A DNA stretch of 64,000 nt, taken from the NCBI GenBank assembly GCA_012270865.1, contig JAAXHL010000056.1, positions 26,292-90,291 on the forward strand, given 5' to 3'. The DNA is from Candidatus Poribacteria bacterium (GTDB lineage: Bacteria; Poribacteria; WGA-4E; WGA-3G). Position numbers and translations under genes: made by a program. Positions 7,981-36,052 of the stretch are shown here, piece after piece. The notes below the pieces were generated by a model. It had not been told where the DNA came from, did no database searches, and saw only the letters and a list, made by a program, of their open reading frames with translations. How positions within the stretch are numbered: position 1 is the stretch's first letter; every line of letters starts with the position of its first letter.

Positions 7981-8910
7981 TTAATCCCATAATCTTGTGC
8001 TGAAGTAGCGTTCGCCGAGGTCGTTAAAGACGGTAACGATAACGCCTTCCTGAATTTCTTGTGCGACTTTATATACGCCATAAAGGTAACCGCCGGAGGA
8101 TTGTCCAACGAACCAACCGCGTTGCGCGAGCCGTTTACACATCTCGTAAGCGTCTTCAATCGTTGTCGGGATGCGGTCATCAATCACCGATTCATCCAAA
8201 ATTGCTGGCACAATATTCTCTGGGTCTCCGAGCGGTTTGAGTCCTTCAATACCGGGGAACACCTCTGGTGAAATAGAGCAGATTTGGATGTCTGGATTGT
8301 AGTTTTTGAGCCGCCTGCCGACACCTGTAATGGTGCCGCCGGTACCTACACCGGCAACGAAGTGCGTAACCTTTCCACCCGTTTGGTTCCAGATTTCGAC
8401 ACCGGTGGTCTCATAGTGCGCCAGCCAATTGTTCTCATTGTCGTATTGCGAGTTGAAAAAATATCGGTCAGGTTGCGCTTCATAGCGTCGATCCACTTCT
8501 CGGAGTGCTTCATCGTAGCCGAGGAGCGCGTCGGTATGGATGATGTCTGCGCCGTGTGATCGGATCCGCTTTATCCGTTCTTCGCTGGCGTTGTCTGGAA
8601 TTACGAGTTCAACTTTGTAGCCGAGGGTCGCGCCTATCATCGCATAAGCGATCGCGGCGTTGCCGGAGCTGGAATCGAGGATAACCTTTTCGTGTGTGAG
8701 TTCGCCTGTAGCGATCGCCTCCGTGATCATTCTTAAGACCGGTCGGTCTTTAATCGAGCCACCGGGGTTATAGGTTTCCACTTTCGCATAGATGTCAACA
8801 TTCGGCAACTCGTCTGCGAAGAGGTCTATCTTCGCGAGGGGTGTCTGTCCTATTATTTGGAGCAGTGGATGTTCTGAGATGTCCACCTTTTCAGGCTTTC
8901 GCATGCTCAT
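7981..8910 (-). CDS. cysteine synthase family PLP enzyme (CysK/CysM-like)
   Basis: 309 aa. PLP-lysine motif GGSIKDRP, SSGNAAIAYA, GVGTGGTITG loop. Confidence 0.9.
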   Translation of the reverse strand: MSMRKPEKVDISEHPLLQIIGQTPLAKIDLFADELPNVDIYAKVETYNPGGSIKDRPVLRMITEAIATGELTHEKVILDSSSGNAAIAYAMIGATLGYKVELVIPDNASEERIKRIRSHGADIIHTDALLGYDEALREVDRRYEAQPDRYFFNSQYDNENNWLAHYETTGVEIWNQTGGKVTHFVAGVGTGGTITGVGRRLKNYNPDIQICSISPEVFPGIEGLKPLGDPENIVPAILDESVIDDRIPTTIEDAYEMCKRLAQRGWFVGQSSGGYLYGVYKVAQEIQEGVIVTVFNDLGERYFSTRLWD

Positions 8911-29726: not shown

Positions 29727-30545
29727 CTACAAGGCATCGCGGAGCATTTCCACGCTTTGTGGGACACCGACGTGTGCATCCGCCTTCCCTTCAAATTCGA
29801 TGGATACGTATCCTTGGAATCCGACTTCTTTTAAAATCTTACCGATTTTAGCGTAATCCAGATCCAGCGTATACCATTCACCTTCACCGTAATAGGTTTT
29901 GGCGTGGACGAGTACCGCTTCATCCGCAATCTGTTCGAGTTTTTGATATGGGTCCGAAAGGAAATTCCCACAATCCATTATTACCTTCAACCACTCCGAA
30001 TCAATAGCAGAGACGATACGGTTGACACCTTCAGGGGTGCAGGTCAGTCCCCAGTGATTCTCGAGTCCGAGGACGACACCGCATTTTTCGGCATCAGGGA
30101 GGCATTTTTCGATGGAGGCGATGACCCATTCAAATGCCTCATCTTCTGTGTGTCCAGGGAGTGTCGGTTCCTGCCCTTCGGATTTCATCAATTCGTTGAA
30201 GGACGGGACAGTTCCCCATCGTCCTGAGTTGAGACGGATAGAAGGGATACCGAGTTCGTGTGCCAATCGGATACAATGGATGGTGTGATTGATGTTTTTT
30301 TGCCGCGTCGCCGCATCCGGTGAGACGAAGCCTTGATGGATGGAGAGCGCGTAGAGATCAAGTCCATTGATGAAAGCGAGTCGTTTCAGTTTCTGAAGAT
30401 ACGGATTTGCTTCCGATGCCATCTGTTGATGTAAGATTTCAATGCCGTCGAGTTCGAGTCGTGCAGCTTCTTCAATGACGTGTTCAATCGGAACACGCTC
30501 AGGTTTGAAATGCCAATAGGAATAAGTGGATACACCGAGTTTCAA
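29727..30545 (-). CDS. sugar phosphate isomerase/epimerase (xylose-isomerase-like TIM barrel)
   Basis: 272 aa. MKLGVSTYSY...LDGIEIL start and LENHWG motif. Confidence 0.85.
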   Translation of the reverse strand: MKLGVSTYSYWHFKPERVPIEHVIEEAARLELDGIEILHQQMASEANPYLQKLKRLAFINGLDLYALSIHQGFVSPDAATRQKNINHTIHCIRLAHELGIPSIRLNSGRWGTVPSFNELMKSEGQEPTLPGHTEDEAFEWVIASIEKCLPDAEKCGVVLGLENHWGLTCTPEGVNRIVSAIDSEWLKVIMDCGNFLSDPYQKLEQIADEAVLVHAKTYYGEGEWYTLDLDYAKIGKILKEVGFQGYVSIEFEGKADAHVGVPQSVEMLRDAL

Positions 30546-30681: not shown

Positions 30682-31581
30682 ATGCGTCAATTTGATCCCG
30701 TCGTGAAACATATTTTGGATCGCTTCGGTCCCGAGTTCGCAAGGCTGCTTTTCAATGAACCTGGGCTTCAAGTTCTCCAAAGATTGGACACACAACAATT
30801 GAGCATAAAAGTGCATCAAAACGATATGACGTTTAAGGTGCAGCGTGCCAATGGTGAAGTTTTTCTGCAGCATATAGAAGTGCAAACAACGGATAGTACT
30901 GATATCCCGATGCCTCTTCGTGTCTTAGGTTACGCAAGTGCATTGGTTTTACGCTATCGGCTGCCTGTCTATTCTATGGTGTTGTATCTCTCTAGAAACG
31001 CGGGACGGACCGACCCCGGCACCTACGAGTATCAAGCAGAGGGTCTGGGTTTGCGTTTGGACTATAAAGTTATCCGTTTTGCTGAGTTAGAGGGCGGGAC
31101 ATTTTTAGAGCAGGCGACTATCGGTTTGCTACCGTTTACGCCGCTGATGAAGCCGCCTGCGGGTATGAGTCCTGAGGCGTGGGTAGAGGCGTGTGTTGCG
31201 AAGACGTATGATGCCCCGGTAGACTCTGAAACGCGTTCCACGTTGTTATTTGCGTTATCACTTCTTGGGAGCTTGGCACACGGGTCAGAACTATTTCAGC
31301 AGTTAATATCGGAGGAAATCATGCAAGAGTCTCCATTTTACGAAGTTGTTTTGCAGCGCGGTATAACGCAAGGCATAGCGCGCGGGGCACGTGAGACGAC
31401 TATCAAAAATATCCTCACCGTTCTGGACACAAGATTCTCTGAAAGCGACACACGTCCAGCAGCCACGGCACTTGAGGCAATCGTTGATAAAGAACGGCTG
31501 GATCAAATCCTGAATACCGCACTCGTAGCAGCTACGTTCAGCGATTTCTTGCAAGCACTGCACTCAGAGTCGCGTGTCTAA
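30682..31581 (+). CDS. Rpn/YhgA-like PD-(D/E)XK protein with DUF4351-like C-terminus
   Basis: 299 aa. DMTFKVQRANGEVFLQHIEVQT core and the C-terminal ESPFYEVVLQRGITQGIARGARE segment typical of this putative-transposase-like family. Confidence 0.7.
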   Translation: MRQFDPVVKHILDRFGPEFARLLFNEPGLQVLQRLDTQQLSIKVHQNDMTFKVQRANGEVFLQHIEVQTTDSTDIPMPLRVLGYASALVLRYRLPVYSMVLYLSRNAGRTDPGTYEYQAEGLGLRLDYKVIRFAELEGGTFLEQATIGLLPFTPLMKPPAGMSPEAWVEACVAKTYDAPVDSETRSTLLFALSLLGSLAHGSELFQQLISEEIMQESPFYEVVLQRGITQGIARGARETTIKNILTVLDTRFSESDTRPAATALEAIVDKERLDQILNTALVAATFSDFLQALHSESRV

Positions 31582-31593
31582 ATATTATGTTTA

Positions 31594-31670
31594 GGACTTA
31601 CGCAATTTTCTATGTGTTATCTGCGATAGGCGGGGTTACAAACCCCGCCTACAAAGGGGTTGCGTAAGTT
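31594..31670. terminator. nested palindrome between convergent genes (possible bidirectional terminator)
   Basis: Outer ACTTACGCAA / TTGCGTAAGT around inner GGCGGGGTT-ACA-AACCCCGCC (31629-31649). A degenerate copy of the inner motif lies at about 47703-47725. Confidence 0.5.
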
Positions 31671-31732: not shown

Positions 31733-32794
31733 TTATTTAGAAATAGCATCAGGTCTATCTGTTACTGCTTCTGCGACCAGTCGTTCTAAATCTGGTTCTC
31801 TCCCTTTGCACGATATCAACTTGTGGTTGGCTTCATGAGCGATCAACGTGCCATCCCTATCAATAAGCCACCGTGCTGGAATAGATTTAACATCATACTG
31901 TTGTACCAGGGGACTCTGCCGTTCTTGTCCACTGTAAACCTGCCGCCAAGGAATGTCATTTTCCTTGAGAAAGTTACGCAGCTTCGCTTCGTCAGTGTCG
32001 AGGCTGACACCGATGACATCAAATCCCTGATCCCTATAAGTATCGTAAATATTCTTGATATTCAGTATATCCGTGATGCAGAAACCGTTCCAGACCGCCC
32101 AGAAATCGAGTAGAACGACTTGCCCGCGATAGTCCCGCAGCGAGATCGGTTTTCCATTGAAATCAGTTGTGGAAAAATCGGGAACAGGTTTTCCGAGCAA
32201 ACCCAACGGCGGCGTAACCTTTCTACGGTATTCCATTGCGCGTTCGGCGTTGCCTAACTCTTCATGAATCTGTGCAAGAAGGGTTTTAGAATTGAAAATT
32301 TTGAAACGGTCAATAAGTTGATCTATATCCTTTTCCCGTCCAGCTTCAATATAGAGACGAATAAGTATGCGGTAGATATAGAAAAAATTTTCATCGTTTG
32401 GGTGTTGCTGAAGTTTCGCTTCCAAATCGGTGATAGATTTTTCAACGGTTGCCTCGTTGATATCTTCGCCCGGATTTTGTGGCTTGATTTCGACTCCCGC
32501 AGACGACTTTAGCAGTTCTAAATACCGAGGTATCCGCTCACGGCGAGGCAGATAATATGGATGAAACAGACTCATATTGTGTAGATGTCCGATCACTTCC
32601 AAATCTGGGGTAAGCGTCAGAATGTCCACAGAATCGGTGTAATTTTGTCGGAGTTTCGCTGCTAAGGCGGCTGCGTTTGCGCCTCTGGTACCCCTCTGTA
32701 GTTCGGGTAACTCTCTCAGTAGAACCCAGACATTCACAAAATGCGTGTTGAGCAGATTGATAATTTTCGGTGAGGAGAGCGGACCCGCTCTCAA
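31733..32794 (-). CDS. TPR + TlpA-like thioredoxin-fold protein (WNGFC instead of WCxxC); probably the C-terminal part of a longer UGA-containing ORF
   Basis: 353 aa from a TTG with no clear SD. In frame with ORF 32810..33625 and separated from it by a single TGA. TlpA module GQVVLLDFWAVWNGFCITD. Confidence 0.75.
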   Translation of the reverse strand: MRAGPLSSPKIINLLNTHFVNVWVLLRELPELQRGTRGANAAALAAKLRQNYTDSVDILTLTPDLEVIGHLHNMSLFHPYYLPRRERIPRYLELLKSSAGVEIKPQNPGEDINEATVEKSITDLEAKLQQHPNDENFFYIYRILIRLYIEAGREKDIDQLIDRFKIFNSKTLLAQIHEELGNAERAMEYRRKVTPPLGLLGKPVPDFSTTDFNGKPISLRDYRGQVVLLDFWAVWNGFCITDILNIKNIYDTYRDQGFDVIGVSLDTDEAKLRNFLKENDIPWRQVYSGQERQSPLVQQYDVKSIPARWLIDRDGTLIAHEANHKLISCKGREPDLERLVAEAVTDRPDAISK

Positions 32795-32812
32795 AGATTT
32801 GCCCGACCCTCA
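32771..32812 (-). promoter_or_regulatory. in-frame UGA plus candidate bacterial SECIS hairpin
   Basis: UGA at 32810-32812. 17 nt downstream lies GAGAGCG-GGUC-CGCUCUC (32775-32792). UGAG can also pair with the CUCA that flanks the hairpin. Confidence 0.5.
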
Positions 32813-33625
32813 GCAGGATTCATCGTCGAGTACGCCAAATAAAAGCACCGCGTGAATCGGACGATTCAATGCTTTCGCACGTTCAACAGCATCTTCAATC
32901 GGGGTCCACGCAATTTCAGTGAACTTGTAAAGCGCGTTCCGAAACTTCTCCCCAACTACTTCCGCAGTGATAGCAGTTTCCCAAGCGATCGGTTTCGGTT
33001 GCTCCTCTGATAAACCACAGAGCTCCATGCGAGGCACAAACCCTATATCGGCAGTTCTAAAGGCTCCGATATCGACGTTGCTATTGTGAGATGGAAGCGA
33101 TAAGGTGAATCGACAAATCGCTCCGTTATTGCGGTTGATGATCAGATGTCCAAAAAACTGTGCGGGTCTAAAATAGGCACCGATGGACGTGTCCAGCGTA
33201 AAGCGCGCATGGATTCGGAAGACAATATCGGCATATTCAGGCGAAATTGCCCGTAAACACGCCTTTGCACCCTTCTGACCATGCCTGAGATTCATTGTTG
33301 CACTGCGGTGAAACTGACGAAGAAACGGGAGGATCCCGTCCGGGTCCAAGTCCCAGACATCCCCAACGTTAACAGTTGACGGTGGAAGAAAGACTTGAAA
33401 ATCCGTTGTGTTGTAGCGTTTCAATGGCTGCGTAGGTCCCGGATTGAATAATTTTAGCCACTGCTCCCATGTCATATCCACCGGTTCATGCCATTGTGCC
33501 TTGGATCGATTAAACTTTTCTTCTGTCGCCCAATGCAAGTTATTCGCTGTGTTCTCGATCGGATCCCAATGCGCCTGCACTGGGATATGCTCCGAAGTTT
33601 TCAGTACATTACGAAGGTCTATCAA
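32810..33625 (-). CDS. hypothetical protein ending in ...LLFGVLDDESC-TGA; probably the N-terminal part of a Sec-containing thioredoxin-fold protein
   Basis: 271 aa. TTG start 7 nt after GGGAG. Stop codon is TGA. See the finding on the UGA junction. Confidence 0.75.
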   Translation of the reverse strand: MIDLRNVLKTSEHIPVQAHWDPIENTANNLHWATEEKFNRSKAQWHEPVDMTWEQWLKLFNPGPTQPLKRYNTTDFQVFLPPSTVNVGDVWDLDPDGILPFLRQFHRSATMNLRHGQKGAKACLRAISPEYADIVFRIHARFTLDTSIGAYFRPAQFFGHLIINRNNGAICRFTLSLPSHNSNVDIGAFRTADIGFVPRMELCGLSEEQPKPIAWETAITAEVVGEKFRNALYKFTEIAWTPIEDAVERAKALNRPIHAVLLFGVLDDESC

Positions 33626-33734: not shown

Positions 33735-34949
33735 CTATTGATTCGCAGATTTATCCTTAAGTGCTTCCACCACAAGCCGTTCTAAGTCTTCACCTCTCGC
33801 TTTATGCGAAATTAATTTGCCATCTCTATCAATAAGCCACTGTTCTGGAATACCACGGACACCGTATTGCCGGACAAGAGAATCGGCACCCCTTGCGCCA
33901 TCAAAAATTTGCCGCCATTGGATGTCGTTCTCTTTGATATAGTCCCGAAGCTCCTTTTCCGTATCATCAAGACTGACAGCGATGATGTCAAACCCTCGAT
34001 CTTTGTAGGTATCGTAAACGCTTTTGAGATTCGGCATTTCGGTGATGCAGAAACCACACCACACTGCCCAAAAGTCGAGCAAGACAACTTTCCCACGATA
34101 ATCCTGCAGCGAAATCGGATTCCCATCAAGGTCGGTTGCGGCAAAGTCTGTCACAGGTTTTCCCCACAATTCATATTTCGGATCAGCCTTGCGGTCATAT
34201 ATATCGGCGAGTTCAGTATTTCCCAATTCCCTATAGATGTGGGCAATTCGCCAGAGGATAGGTTCGGCATCCGGGTGCTGCTGCTCCGCCTCCTTAAAAA
34301 TCTCAAGCATTTCCTCGTATCGCTCGTCTCTCCTAAGCACATCGAATAACATTCGATAATGATCAAGGTCCTTTGTTGGGTCTGACTTGAGACGTTCTAT
34401 AATGACATTTGCAGACTGTTCGTTTCCGACTTTAGTGTAGAGTCTGATAAGTTGTGGATAGACTTCGGAGACACGCGGGTTATCTGGCTGTCGCGCAAGG
34501 GCATCCTCAAAAGCAGTTATCGCTGCTTCGGAACTCCCGTAAAGGTCTTCCGGTGTGAATTCCCAAACAGCAGATGACGTGTAGATTTTTGAAGAGAAAC
34601 TCAGGTTCAAACACCCAAAATCTTCGTTCTCGTGATGTCGGCAACGGACAAGGGGCATAACATCACCATATATCAAGCGTTGTTTGCTTTTCTCATCTCG
34701 GTATTCAGGGTGAAACTGATACCCATAACTCACCGGCATTTTCGGATCTGCGTTCAGGGAAAAGATGGTCTCGCCACCCGCTTCGTCCGCAGGACAGATC
34801 AAGGTACTCGCATCTGCCAAATATTTCGGATGAAGGTCTGAAAGCCAGTCAGGAAAATCAGCGTGCTCTTTCTTATATGCCTCAATCGCCTTGCCAATCG
34901 CAACCAAATTTTGCGTACAGGTTTCAATATTCTTCTCGTGCTGTTTCAT
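33735..34949 (-). CDS. TPR + TlpA-like thiol-disulfide oxidoreductase (WCGFC)
   Basis: 404 aa. C-terminal GKVVLLDFWAVWCGFCITEMP with TPR-like repeats upstream. Paralogue of the two neighbouring genes. Confidence 0.85.
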   Translation of the reverse strand: MKQHEKNIETCTQNLVAIGKAIEAYKKEHADFPDWLSDLHPKYLADASTLICPADEAGGETIFSLNADPKMPVSYGYQFHPEYRDEKSKQRLIYGDVMPLVRCRHHENEDFGCLNLSFSSKIYTSSAVWEFTPEDLYGSSEAAITAFEDALARQPDNPRVSEVYPQLIRLYTKVGNEQSANVIIERLKSDPTKDLDHYRMLFDVLRRDERYEEMLEIFKEAEQQHPDAEPILWRIAHIYRELGNTELADIYDRKADPKYELWGKPVTDFAATDLDGNPISLQDYRGKVVLLDFWAVWCGFCITEMPNLKSVYDTYKDRGFDIIAVSLDDTEKELRDYIKENDIQWRQIFDGARGADSLVRQYGVRGIPEQWLIDRDGKLISHKARGEDLERLVVEALKDKSANQ

Positions 34950-35006: not shown

Positions 35007-35666
35007 CTATTCATCCTCGATTTTGTCTCGAAGTGCTTCTACTACGAGCCGCCCTAACTTCACGCCTCTCGCCTCACGTGAGATTAACGTGCCATCTCTA
35101 TCAATAAGCCACAGTGCGGGAATAGAACGAATATGATACTTTTGTGCCAGCGGACTTCTCCACTTCTGCCCGCTAAAAATCTGCCGCCAAGGGATGTTGT
35201 TCTCCTTAAGGTAGTTTCGGAGTCTCGTTTCATCTGTGTCAAGGTTAACCCCGATAATGTCAAATCCTTCATCTTTATAGGTATCGTAAACGCTTTTGAC
35301 GTTTGGCATCTCTGCGAGACAGGGACCGCACCAGATTGCCCAGAAGTCGAGTAGGATGACTTTCCCACGATATTGTTGCAGCGAGATCGGTTTACCATCA
35401 AGGTCAGTTGCGGAAAAGTCAGGCACGACCTTTCCTACAAGTTCCGACATCGGATCCATCTTTTTCCGATATTCCGCGGCGAGTTCGGAATTACCGAGTT
35501 CCTCATGAATTCGGGCGAGCTCCTCAAGGACATAGCGATTGTTCGGATGGCGTTTCTCAAATTTCTCGAAAACCGCAACGGCGAAAATAACGAAACTTTT
35601 CATCGTGGTGTCAACGAGAAATTTCAGCAATGGGTCTGCATAGAGTGTCTCAATGAATTGCATCAT
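35007..35666 (-). CDS. membrane-anchored TlpA-like thiol-disulfide oxidoreductase (WCGPC) with BlaR1-like N-terminal stub
   Basis: 219 aa. N-terminus MMQFIETLYADPLLKFLVDTTMKSFVIFAVAV resembles the first TM of BlaR1/M56 sensors. ATGA overlap with the blaI-like gene. Confidence 0.8.
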   Translation of the reverse strand: MMQFIETLYADPLLKFLVDTTMKSFVIFAVAVFEKFEKRHPNNRYVLEELARIHEELGNSELAAEYRKKMDPMSELVGKVVPDFSATDLDGKPISLQQYRGKVILLDFWAIWCGPCLAEMPNVKSVYDTYKDEGFDIIGVNLDTDETRLRNYLKENNIPWRQIFSGQKWRSPLAQKYHIRSIPALWLIDRDGTLISREARGVKLGRLVVEALRDKIEDE

Positions 35667-36052
35667 GACGAAGTGTCTCCTTTTTTCGCTTGCACGATGA
35701 GTTGGCTTAAACGGTCAAGCTCCTCATCTGAGAGGTCAACTTCGGAAACCAGCGCGATGACCGTTTTTTCAATGGATTTATCAAAAAACGTCTGAAAAAT
35801 CTGTTTGAGCGCGGAACGTCCCGCCTGATGGCGCGGTTGCGTCGGACGATAGATATAACGTTTACCATCTTTTTTATGTGTGAGATACCCTTTTTCTTCT
35901 AAAATCCGCAACAGTGCCCGAACTGTAGAGTAAGTTGGCGGATCCGGGAGGTCCTCAAGGACATCGAAAACAGAAGCGCAACCGCGCTGGTAGACGATAT
36001 CCATGATTTGCCGTTCCCGCCGACTCAACTTGACGGTGCCGTAGTCTTCCAT
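35663..36052 (-). CDS. BlaI/MecI/CopY family transcriptional repressor
   Basis: 129 aa. LSRRERQIMDIVYQRG...TYSTVRALLRILEEKGYLTHKKDGKRYIYRP winged-helix signature. Confidence 0.9.
   Translation of the reverse strand: MEDYGTVKLSRRERQIMDIVYQRGCASVFDVLEDLPDPPTYSTVRALLRILEEKGYLTHKKDGKRYIYRPTQPRHQAGRSALKQIFQTFFDKSIEKTVIALVSEVDLSDEELDRLSQLIVQAKKGDTSS

Follow-up and report, generated by a model that had tools for sequence, protein, structure and literature searches.

A single TGA codon separates two open reading frames (ORFs) on the minus strand of a 64,000-nucleotide stretch of DNA from Candidatus Poribacteria bacterium (NCBI GenBank assembly GCA_012270865.1, contig JAAXHL010000056.1, positions 26,292 to 90,291 of the forward strand; this whole stretch is called the window below, and its first letter is position 1). 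Gene callers and NCBI annotate a 271-aa "hypothetical protein" here, followed by a second gene. Are these really two genes, or does the TGA encode selenocysteine (Sec, U) inside one gene, as an initial annotation made from the letters of the window had proposed? Our comparative analysis of this locus and its relatives indicates, with a probability that we put at about 0.9, that positions 31733-33625 form one gene for a 630-residue selenoprotein in which the UGA at 32810-32812 would specify Sec272.

The reading frame across the UGA and its relatives

The 271-aa minus-strand ORF (32810..33625, with a TTG start) closes with ...AVLLFGVLDDESC-TGA, and the downstream ORF (31733..32794) lies in the same frame on the same strand. 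Conceptual translation of the whole region gives 631 codons, among which this TGA is the sole internal stop and TAA the terminal one; the description of two same-frame ORFs divided by one TGA is thereby borne out, and the size of the fused product, first given as about 630 aa, computes to 630 residues. TGA closes 8 of the 42 listed long ORFs in the window (a count that includes the TGA of this gene), and because it terminates other long ORFs the genetic code here is taken to be standard. A scan of the 64-kb window for further TGA-split ORFs found none beyond the candidate selenoprotein locus.

The nearest relatives of the window protein are from named Candidatus Poribacteria (marine-sponge symbionts). 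When the read-through sequence was the query of a word-indexed search, more than 120 proteins of 75–100% identity came back, nearly all of them 265–277 aa long and covering just the first 70% of the query; with the Cys form (below) and the downstream fragment as queries, the word index limited the matches to 16 and 20, respectively. With the upstream ORF as the query and a threshold of E ≤ 0.001, HMMER was run exhaustively against 1.8 billion cluster representatives and found 334 relatives, the lowest at about 30% identity. In most of these relatives the residue that aligns with query residue 271 is the protein's own final residue, even when additional domains precede the family domain (for example in P0123, which is 576 aa long, and P0156, which is 1101 aa long), and at least 117 of the 150 listed representatives of 50% identity clusters end exactly at the Cys of ...D[EQ][ST]C. 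A "stop" that is conserved in this manner among relatives usually points to a Sec codon that has been mis-called.

About 105 loci in total were compared at the DNA level. Species-representative genomes contributed 80 of them, about 70 being poribacterial and the others planctomycetal (Fimbriiglobus and Pirellulaceae among them), and 19 Joint Genome Institute (JGI) metagenome loci and several single look-ups were added. The TGA is carried by loci of Poribacteria and of Planctomycetota and by loci from metagenomes of soil or sediment. Each of the 83 distinct junction sequences that the first 83 loci provide has an in-frame TGA directly after an invariant Cys, as do 21 later loci (the 19 JGI loci plus L084 and L085) that extend down to about 30% identity. 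On the 3′ side of the TGA the same frame continues as G[ST]GK.LRAGPLS...FVN.W.L, and among the 83 junctions its codons vary synonymously (Gly+1 is GGG, GGA or GGC; Gly+3 is GGC, GGT, GGA or GGG; Lys+4 is AAA or AAG), which is how coding, and not intergenic, sequence behaves. In other members CTG or CTC stands where the downstream ORF has its nominal TTG start here, and the core family protein is about 270 + 1 + 100–110 residues long. These three features (a frame kept in about 105 loci, the replacement of TTG by CTG or CTC elsewhere, and the coding-like codons after the TGA) agree with the earlier suspicion that the downstream ORF is not an independent gene, and the comparison for homologues that exist as two separate genes, which the initial annotation had called for, ended with both the TGA and the frame retained in about 105 loci.

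The family is present in more than one copy in parts of this collection: several Poribacteria genomes have two loci, and PCPOR4 has three or four copies of the Sec type. A third Poribacteria clade of the family, which bears signal peptides and is about 42% identical, occurs as tandem arrays of two or three genes, each of which has its own TGA and a re-registered form of the hairpin discussed below (L071 at 4810, 6695 and 8137-8184; L073 at 1141 and 2996).

Rare continuous single-ORF relatives, 389–435 aa in length, have Cys at the TGA column. Their junctions read EDESC-C-GSGKTLRK in P0183, LCDESC-C-G[ST]GK.LRAGPLS in P0199, P0247 and P0271-P0282, DDEAC-C-ATGK in P0222 and ENEC-C-FGTAR in P0214. 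The proposed check for a Cys at the aligned column of single-ORF homologues was thus positive in P0183, P0199, P0222, P0247 and P0271-P0282. Among the cluster representatives there are roughly 20 TGA forms for each Cys form, and the sequences of one Cys-form clade (P0199 and P0271-P0282) hint at a compensating extra disulfide.

The hairpin downstream of the UGA

The 7-bp, GGUC-capped hairpin that had been described 17 nt after the UGA was located where it was claimed to be (GAGAGCG-GGUC-CGCUCUC; Table 1). It is present in the minimum-free-energy (MFE) fold of the region and by itself has a folding energy of −10.7 kcal/mol. The published model of the bacterial selenocysteine insertion sequence (bSECIS) has a loop of 3–9 nt, a stem of 4–16 bp, G at the first two loop positions, a distance of 16–37 nt from the UGA and an MFE of −7.5 kcal/mol or lower (PMC13188914); the window hairpin, with its 4-nt loop that starts with GG, its 7 bp, its UGA-to-loop distance of 24 nt and the above energy, falls within all of these limits.

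The evidence that this structure is under selection comes from its relatives. Across 65 distinct sequences 97.4% of the cells in the hairpin are paired, and the base-pair changes that do occur are G-C to A-U in five sequences and C-G to U-A in one. The stem codons are nearly frozen: GCG for Ala in 75 of 77 sequences, GGT for Gly in 79 of 79, CCG for Pro in 74 of 75 and CTC for Leu in 81 of 83, with a synonymous entropy of 0–0.19 bits compared to 0.7–2.2 bits for comparable conserved codons outside the stem (Mann-Whitney p = 5.5e-5). GC-rich genomes with quite different codon usage have the same stem nucleotides, including GGU for Gly. Divergent members rebuild predicted compensatory or alternative hairpins, as follows: the L079 sequence gives GAGAGUA-GGUC-UACUCUC, L085 gives GGGCA-GGUC-UGCUC (the core of Escherichia coli fdhF, below), L071-73 give GAGGAC-AGGU-GUCCUC with a shift of one base, and L077, L081 and L086 have a different stem-loop, …CUC-CGUGN-GAG…, that is closer to the UGA. 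As a control, the Cys-form gene of L105 encodes the same peptide, LRAGPLS, as CUC CGU GCC GGG CCG CUG UCC, and there the hairpin is absent (−1.6 kcal/mol); L106 retains a hairpin relic.

A covariance model of the hairpin was trained on the genome loci and tested on metagenome loci that had not been used in training, which scored 29.5–75 bits except for L085 at 16 bits. This check, which the initial annotation had suggested, gave exactly one full-length match in the window; the other match in the window was weak and partial (12.8 bits, E = 0.15) and lies on the opposite strand of the same palindromic hairpin. The model had no match at L105 or L107, and no Rfam family matched in the window at the gathering threshold. 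By these comparisons of sequence the hairpin behaves as a conserved SECIS-type element. A further proposal, that UGAG, which includes the UGA, pairs with the CUCA just 3′ of the hairpin, stands in part: the pairing is possible in the window and 89.6% of its cells are paired in Poribacteria, but it is not kept in distant members, and this pairing leaves no room for covariation. In L072 a paralogue at about 7960, which adjoins a Sec-type copy, carries the Gly codon GGC where others have the TGA and keeps the stem GAGGGC...GCCCUC with a loop that is now AACU; it looks like a copy that has lost Sec and whose SECIS is decaying.

The E. coli K-12 fdhF sequence reads TGA CAC GGC CCA TCG GTT GCA GGTC TGC ACC and has the apical loop GGUC, which confirms the initial annotation in that the tetraloops are the same. 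In both genes an in-frame UGA is followed by a hairpin within the coding region whose GGUC loop contains an in-frame Gly codon (GGU), and L085 has the GCAGGUCUGC core in common with E. coli fdhF. The two elements differ in the UGA-to-loop spacing (24 nt here and 18 nt in E. coli fdhF) and in the upper stem, which here is a perfect 7-bp GC-rich helix without the unpaired U of the fdhF minihelix; that U has a role in SelB binding. The lower helix that contains the UGA is tentative here.

Decoding would then proceed as follows: when a ribosome arrives at the UGA at 32810-32812, a SelB·GTP·Sec-tRNA(Sec) complex would be held by the hairpin, with its loop 24 nt downstream, selenocysteine would be inserted as residue 272, and translation would proceed to the TAA at 31733. 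Components of such machinery have been reported in this group of bacteria. The counts for Ca_Poribacteria_WGA3G are two for COG1921 (SelA), one for COG3276 (SelB) and one for COG0709 (SelD) (Slaby et al. 2017, PMC5649159 Table S4), and this WGA-3G genome is the source of our locus L007, in which both the TGA and the hairpin are present. SelA and SelB are enriched in sponge symbionts (PMC5649159), and Poribacteria are among the phyla with Sec-containing hydrogenases (PMC13582414).

The thioredoxin-fold module and alternative readings of the UGA

What kind of protein does the read-through frame encode? An AlphaFold model was obtained from a 98-row alignment for the Cys homologue P0199, not for the window protein itself, and it has a pLDDT of 91.6 and a pTM of 0.86. 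It begins with an N-terminal signal or anchor helix and a β-rich domain (~residues 40-250), which are followed by β1 (293-298), a loop that holds C307-C308, α1 (309-316 and 322-331), β2 (333-338) and then α, β, β and α. This order, β-α-β-α-β-β-α from residue 293 to 416, is that of the thioredoxin fold. The top Foldseek matches in the PDB are DsbH (2ju5, 7e-5), Thioredox_DsbH (7tkv, 1.4e-4), a Thermus thioredoxin (2lst, 2.6e-4) and 3ira (2.8e-4), followed by ERp19 (1sen) and 2kuc, and the DsbH-type matches span E = 7e-5 to 4e-4; every one of these fold matches is an oxidoreductase. The model and its matches to DsbH/Thioredoxin_7-type structures uphold the thioredoxin fold that had been postulated around the UGA. 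Since the TGA would cut between β1 and α1 of one thioredoxin fold, the two halves cannot be two functional proteins.

The active site reads C-U-G-S-G-K. Gly is found three residues past the Sec in all TGA forms, and the site is therefore none of CxxC, UxxC or CxxU. In the P0199 model the Sec-equivalent residue stands directly before the first residue of α1, and the N-terminus of α1 is the seat of the nucleophilic Cys of CxxC in a thioredoxin fold. An ungapped alignment to WCGPCK/HCPYCQ puts U at the first Cys, Gly at the second Cys and Lys at the Lys or Gln that follows; an HMMER alignment puts the preceding Cys at the first Cys instead (E = 1.7). The two alignments disagree, and we infer that the Sec may be the counterpart of the nucleophilic Cys of CxxC.

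No Pfam or NCBIfam family is above threshold for the first 385 residues of the window protein or for the Cys homologues. Pfam PF13899 (Thioredoxin_7) reaches at best 14.3 bits (E = 0.044, in P0222) with a cut-off of 27, and the window protein has no match to it. When the read-through protein and four homologues were compared with NCBIfam, no selenoprotein or thioredoxin family was found at E ≤ 1, and the sole match, WPE_wolbac (E = 0.015), is below its cut-off and spurious. Despite the high-confidence model, Foldseek found no convincing PDB match for the N-terminal domain, which has conserved His and Cys residues, and a sequence-profile search of the PDB gave marginal matches to a cupin (E = 0.65) and to 2lst (E = 1.7).

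The best structural matches of the module that spans the TGA are folds of the DsbH/Thioredoxin_7/DUF255 type (2ju5, 7tkv, 2lst, 3ira, 2kuc and the ERp19 structure 1sen), and its sequence pattern ...hhhhF..-active site-K.hR...LS.P.h..hLN..FV.h.h resembles that of 2lst. It differs from DsbH/Thioredoxin_7 proteins in that C-U-G-S-G takes the place of C-x-x-C and in its fusion to a 240-residue N-terminal domain. Known thioredoxin-fold selenoproteins (UxxC thioredoxins, the CxxU Trx7/PDZ family NF041199, UGSC NF041046, the UGC-containing TlpA proteins, HUIPC and SaoT) likewise have Sec at a redox-motif position, a bacterial SECIS and Cys homologues. The family described here differs from them in that its Sec is paired with a vicinal Cys, not with a Cys three residues away, and in that TGA forms dominate by about 20 to 1; NF041046 and NF041199 had no match to the read-through protein or the four homologues.

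The resemblance to the GCUG centre of animal thioredoxin reductase, which had also been pointed out, is a partial one. The vicinal Cys-Sec dyad followed by Gly is common to the window protein and the mammalian enzyme, whose dyad forms an eight-membered selenenylsulfide ring, but in thioredoxin reductase Sec is the penultimate residue on the flexible C-terminal tail of a flavoenzyme, whereas the dyad of the window protein lies inside the chain, with Sec at residue 272 of 630, and would cap the N-terminus of a thioredoxin-fold helix. Pfam finds no FAD or NAD(P)H domain in the window protein.

In the window protein the thioredoxin-fold module is followed by a helical-repeat linker and a second thioredoxin-like module. 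Residues 478-598 match Pfam AhpC-TSA (E = 1.4e-19) and Redoxin (E = 1.5e-17), and this module also matches Thioredoxin_8, a likeness to the membrane-anchored thiol-disulfide oxidoreductases of the TlpA/ResA type; the TlpA module named in the initial annotation is real in this respect; its motif, however, is NGFC and not CxxC, the nucleophilic Cys having been lost. W[NSH][GS]FC is found in 44 of the 45 clade members in which the motif could be found, and only L043 keeps CGFC. Another difference from TlpA/ResA proteins is that no membrane anchor or signal peptide is detectable in the window's clade. The tetratricopeptide repeats (TPR) that had been assigned to the linker have no Pfam hit in the protein itself, but the linker and the TlpA-like module together are 44% identical to the neighbouring TPR-TlpA gene (33735-34949); by this homology the C-terminal half was duplicated from the neighbouring gene, and it is confined to this Poribacteria clade. 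The occurrence of a conserved single-Cys TlpA fold beside a Cys-Sec centre that has no resolving Cys may be more than coincidence.

Several observations weigh against the interpretation of the locus as one selenoprotein gene. ARAGORN and a scan for SelD and SelB motifs in the window found no tRNA-Sec, selA, selB or selD in its 64 kb, and none was found in 60 related loci; it is expected that Sec genes are missing from a 64-kb sample. The 81-nt region around the hairpin folds no more stably than its shuffled versions (z = 0.33), so the case for a SECIS rests on comparative evidence, and the hairpin, being nearly invariant, shows modest covariation from column to column. In rare paralogues the Sec column holds Trp (P0174, TGG), Ala (P0264) or Gly (L072:7960), from which it follows that the residue is not indispensable for every paralogue. 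One locus, L003 (ERZ25069191), is the sole exception to the conserved frame: one additional C is inserted there, eighteen bases past the TGA (1348-1400), and its downstream part is intact in the new frame with an overlapping ATG and no compensating indel. The upstream proteins of L002 and L032 are identical to that of L003 and both of these loci are in frame; the insertion could stem from an error of assembly or mark a gene that is naturally split in that strain. Finally, most relatives have a signal peptide or anchor, and the two main Poribacteria clades are without one.

How well do other readings of the UGA account for these data? It could be a genuine stop between two real genes, with a 271-residue protein that ends there and a downstream ORF that is expressed by translational coupling or by re-initiation at the TTG at 32794. 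The annotation by gene callers and NCBI, a GAGGG stretch 12 nt upstream of the TTG, and L003, whose halves are in different frames and whose downstream part has its own ATG, all speak for this; we nevertheless regard it as very unlikely, since about 105 of 106 loci preserve the frame, the stretch of 15 nt from the TGA to the TTG changes in the manner of codons, many members have CTG or CTC instead of the TTG (and gene callers then start at least 40 nt downstream), continuous Cys versions are known, and the split would fall inside a single thioredoxin fold. Nor does a pseudogene with a recent nonsense mutation, or an error of sequencing or assembly, appear credible. The loss of the first Cys of the TlpA module (NGFC) could look like decay, but that single-Cys motif is itself kept in the clade, both halves are under purifying selection, and all 83 distinct junctions, which stem from independent assemblies, several phyla and several habitats, have the TGA; this conservation of the TGA effectively refutes such explanations, and the chance that we leave for them is negligible. 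The UGA might also be read through as Trp, Cys or Gly, by near-cognate tRNAs or in a reassigned code, a reading that would suit the Trp codon (TGG) at this column of P0174 and the location of any Sec machinery outside the window. It seems highly improbable in view of the standard code, in which TGA terminates other long ORFs of the window, of a SelB-type hairpin with the fdhF loop at a fixed distance, which decays once the codon is one for Cys or Gly, and of the COG matches to SelA, SelB and SelD that are reported for a genome that bears an orthologue.

Gene neighbourhood, possible function and place among selenoproteins

The features of the selenoprotein gene and of its upstream neighbours are collected in Table 1.

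Table 1. Coordinates of the proposed selenoprotein gene, its parts and its upstream neighbours in the window.
Feature	Position	Strand	Remarks
Complete recoded coding sequence (proposed)	31733..33625	-	630 residues including Sec272; TTG start 33623-33625; TAA stop 31733-31735; arrangement same in orthologues
N-terminal β-rich domain, ~residues 1-237	32915..33625	-	Family-defining; no Pfam/NCBIfam model; no signal peptide in this clade
DsbH/Thioredoxin_7-like thioredoxin-fold module spanning the TGA, ~residues 238-380	32486..32914	-	From AlphaFold model of P0199 and Foldseek
β1 IHAVLLFG	32834-32857	-	Thioredoxin-fold module
Cys271 codon TGC	32813..32815	-	Family-invariant Cys directly before Sec; TGC or TGT in 83/83 junctions
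In-frame UGA, proposed Sec272	32810..32812	-	83/83 distinct junctions and 21 further loci; Cys here in single-ORF homologues
bSECIS upper stem-loop (predicted)	32775..32792	-	7-bp stem (32786-32792 with 32775-32781); apical loop GGUC 32782-32785
CUCA, possible lower helix with UGAG (32809-32812) including the UGA	32771..32774	-	Tentative
β2 FVNVWVL	32720-32740	-	Thioredoxin-fold module
Helical-repeat (TPR-like) linker, ~residues 392-475	32201..32452	-	Homologous to TPR region of neighbouring paralogue
TlpA/AhpC-TSA-like thioredoxin-fold module	31832..32194	-	Active site WNGFC 32078-32092: first Cys lost, second kept
TPR-TlpA protein, upstream neighbour	33735..34949	-	404 aa; CGFC intact; paralogue of C-terminal half of selenoprotein
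Shortened BlaR1-like/TPR-TlpA gene	35007-35666	-	219 aa; heads same-strand cluster with BlaI-type gene
BlaI-type repressor gene	35663-36052	-	Penicillinase_R, E = 2.2e-30

The same-strand gene order in the window and in L001/L002 is BlaI-type repressor, BlaR1-like (M56) protein fused to TPR-TlpA, TPR-TlpA protein and selenoprotein, and related loci have Penicillinase_R and Peptidase_M56(+TPR-TlpA) genes at the BlaI/BlaR1 place. The paralogous TlpA neighbours keep their CGFC and CGPC motifs. Both upstream neighbours match AhpC-TSA, Redoxin and Thioredoxin_8, and TPR_19 and TPR_14 are above threshold in the neighbouring paralogue. ORF 35007-35666 consists of about 33 hydrophobic N-terminal residues that are BlaR1-like and are followed immediately by the TPR-TlpA module; at its position L002 has a 780-aa protein with Peptidase_M56, TPR and TlpA parts and L001 has a separate 347-aa M56 gene, and the ORF appears to have lost the protease domain by an in-frame deletion. 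On the other side of the selenoprotein gene, a 299-aa ORF on the plus strand without a Pfam match (30682-31581) lies between it and an AP_endonuc_2-like gene (29727-30545). The selenoprotein and AP_endonuc_2-like genes are adjacent in L001, so this ORF looks like a genome-specific insertion. A perfect 11-bp inverted repeat, TAGGCGGGGTT-TGT-AACCCCGCCTA, is present at 31627-31651, in the interval where the selenoprotein gene and ORF 30682-31581 converge; it has no T-run after it and could be a bidirectional terminator or a repeat element.

Regulatory genes recur beside the family elsewhere. An extracytoplasmic function (ECF) sigma factor gene is directly upstream of the family gene in L079 (1954-3846), L105 (1796-2824), L106 (1796-2897) and the P0271 contig, and in P0123 and P0247 an ECF sigma factor is fused to the family protein. 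Some of the ECF sigma factors near family genes have long C-terminal extensions, and one has a PSCyt2/DUF1549 domain. With a BlaI/BlaR1-like pair here and ECF sigma factors in the Planctomycetota-type relatives, the genes appear to be under stress-type regulation, and this recurrent link to regulators suggests a regulated role in stress or sensing.

What might such a protein do? Cys271 and Sec272 would lie at the β1-α1 junction, the usual place of CxxC, with a Gly in place of the resolving Cys, and the vicinal pair could cycle between a selenol/thiol form and an intramolecular selenenylsulfide, or form a mixed selenenylsulfide with a partner. Motif, fold and neighbours point, with somewhat better than even odds in our estimation, to a Cys271-Sec272 redox centre that acts as an oxidoreductase or redox sensor. 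The main rival for this function is that the Cys-Sec pair might bind a soft metal or metalloid (Hg, Cu, As or organometals), with the protein a metal sensor or scavenger. This idea draws on the "CU"-motif entries with mercury or metal names in a 2026 inventory of selenoproteins (the MerB-like organometallic lyase SaoL, HgcA of mercury methylation, MbdU and CopZ-family (2Fe-2S) form 2), on the lack of a resolving Cys, on the sensor-like location of the genes next to ECF sigma factors or BlaR1-like regulators, and on the conserved His/Cys residues and faint cupin-like match of the N-terminal domain. We consider it somewhat unlikely, given that no metal-resistance genes were seen in the inspected neighbourhoods, that both the fused module and the neighbours belong to the TlpA type of thiol-disulfide oxidoreductase, and that the fold matches are all to oxidoreductases. 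A more specific version of the redox role is a selenium-based extracytoplasmic or stress sensor, in which the oxidation or ligand state of the Cys-Sec pair, held in a DsbH-like fold that is joined to a new β-rich domain, would control transcription through a partner regulator. The partners would be the ECF sigma factors in Planctomycetota-type genomes and the BlaI/BlaR1-like pair in Poribacteria, and in the window's clade the single-Cys TlpA module could serve as the resolving partner. We think this version unlikely, and we know of no selenoprotein shown to work as a signalling sensor of such a kind.

A bacterial thioredoxin-fold selenoprotein with a SECIS in its coding region is of a kind that is already well known. 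The family itself corresponds to no entry in the inventory of 119 prokaryotic selenoprotein families of May 2026, and no selenoprotein of this kind from Poribacteria or Planctomycetota was found in the literature searched, which was limited in coverage; we could not find in any catalogue this family, which is widespread in sponge-symbiont Poribacteria and Planctomycetota. Its unusual features are the C-U-x-x-G centre without a resolving Cys, the dominance of the Sec form, the multiple paralogues per genome and the link to ECF sigma or BlaR1-type regulators.

If read in this way, the locus would add one family to the roughly 119 that are known in prokaryotes, and several hundred 271-residue "hypothetical protein" entries, together with the second ORFs that follow them, would be the two parts of a single selenoprotein. 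With two or more such genes in each Poribacteria genome, these and related genomes would be mis-annotated at these loci. The finding would also give a concrete, multi-copy use of selenium in sponge symbionts, which fits the enrichment of SelA and SelB that has been reported there.

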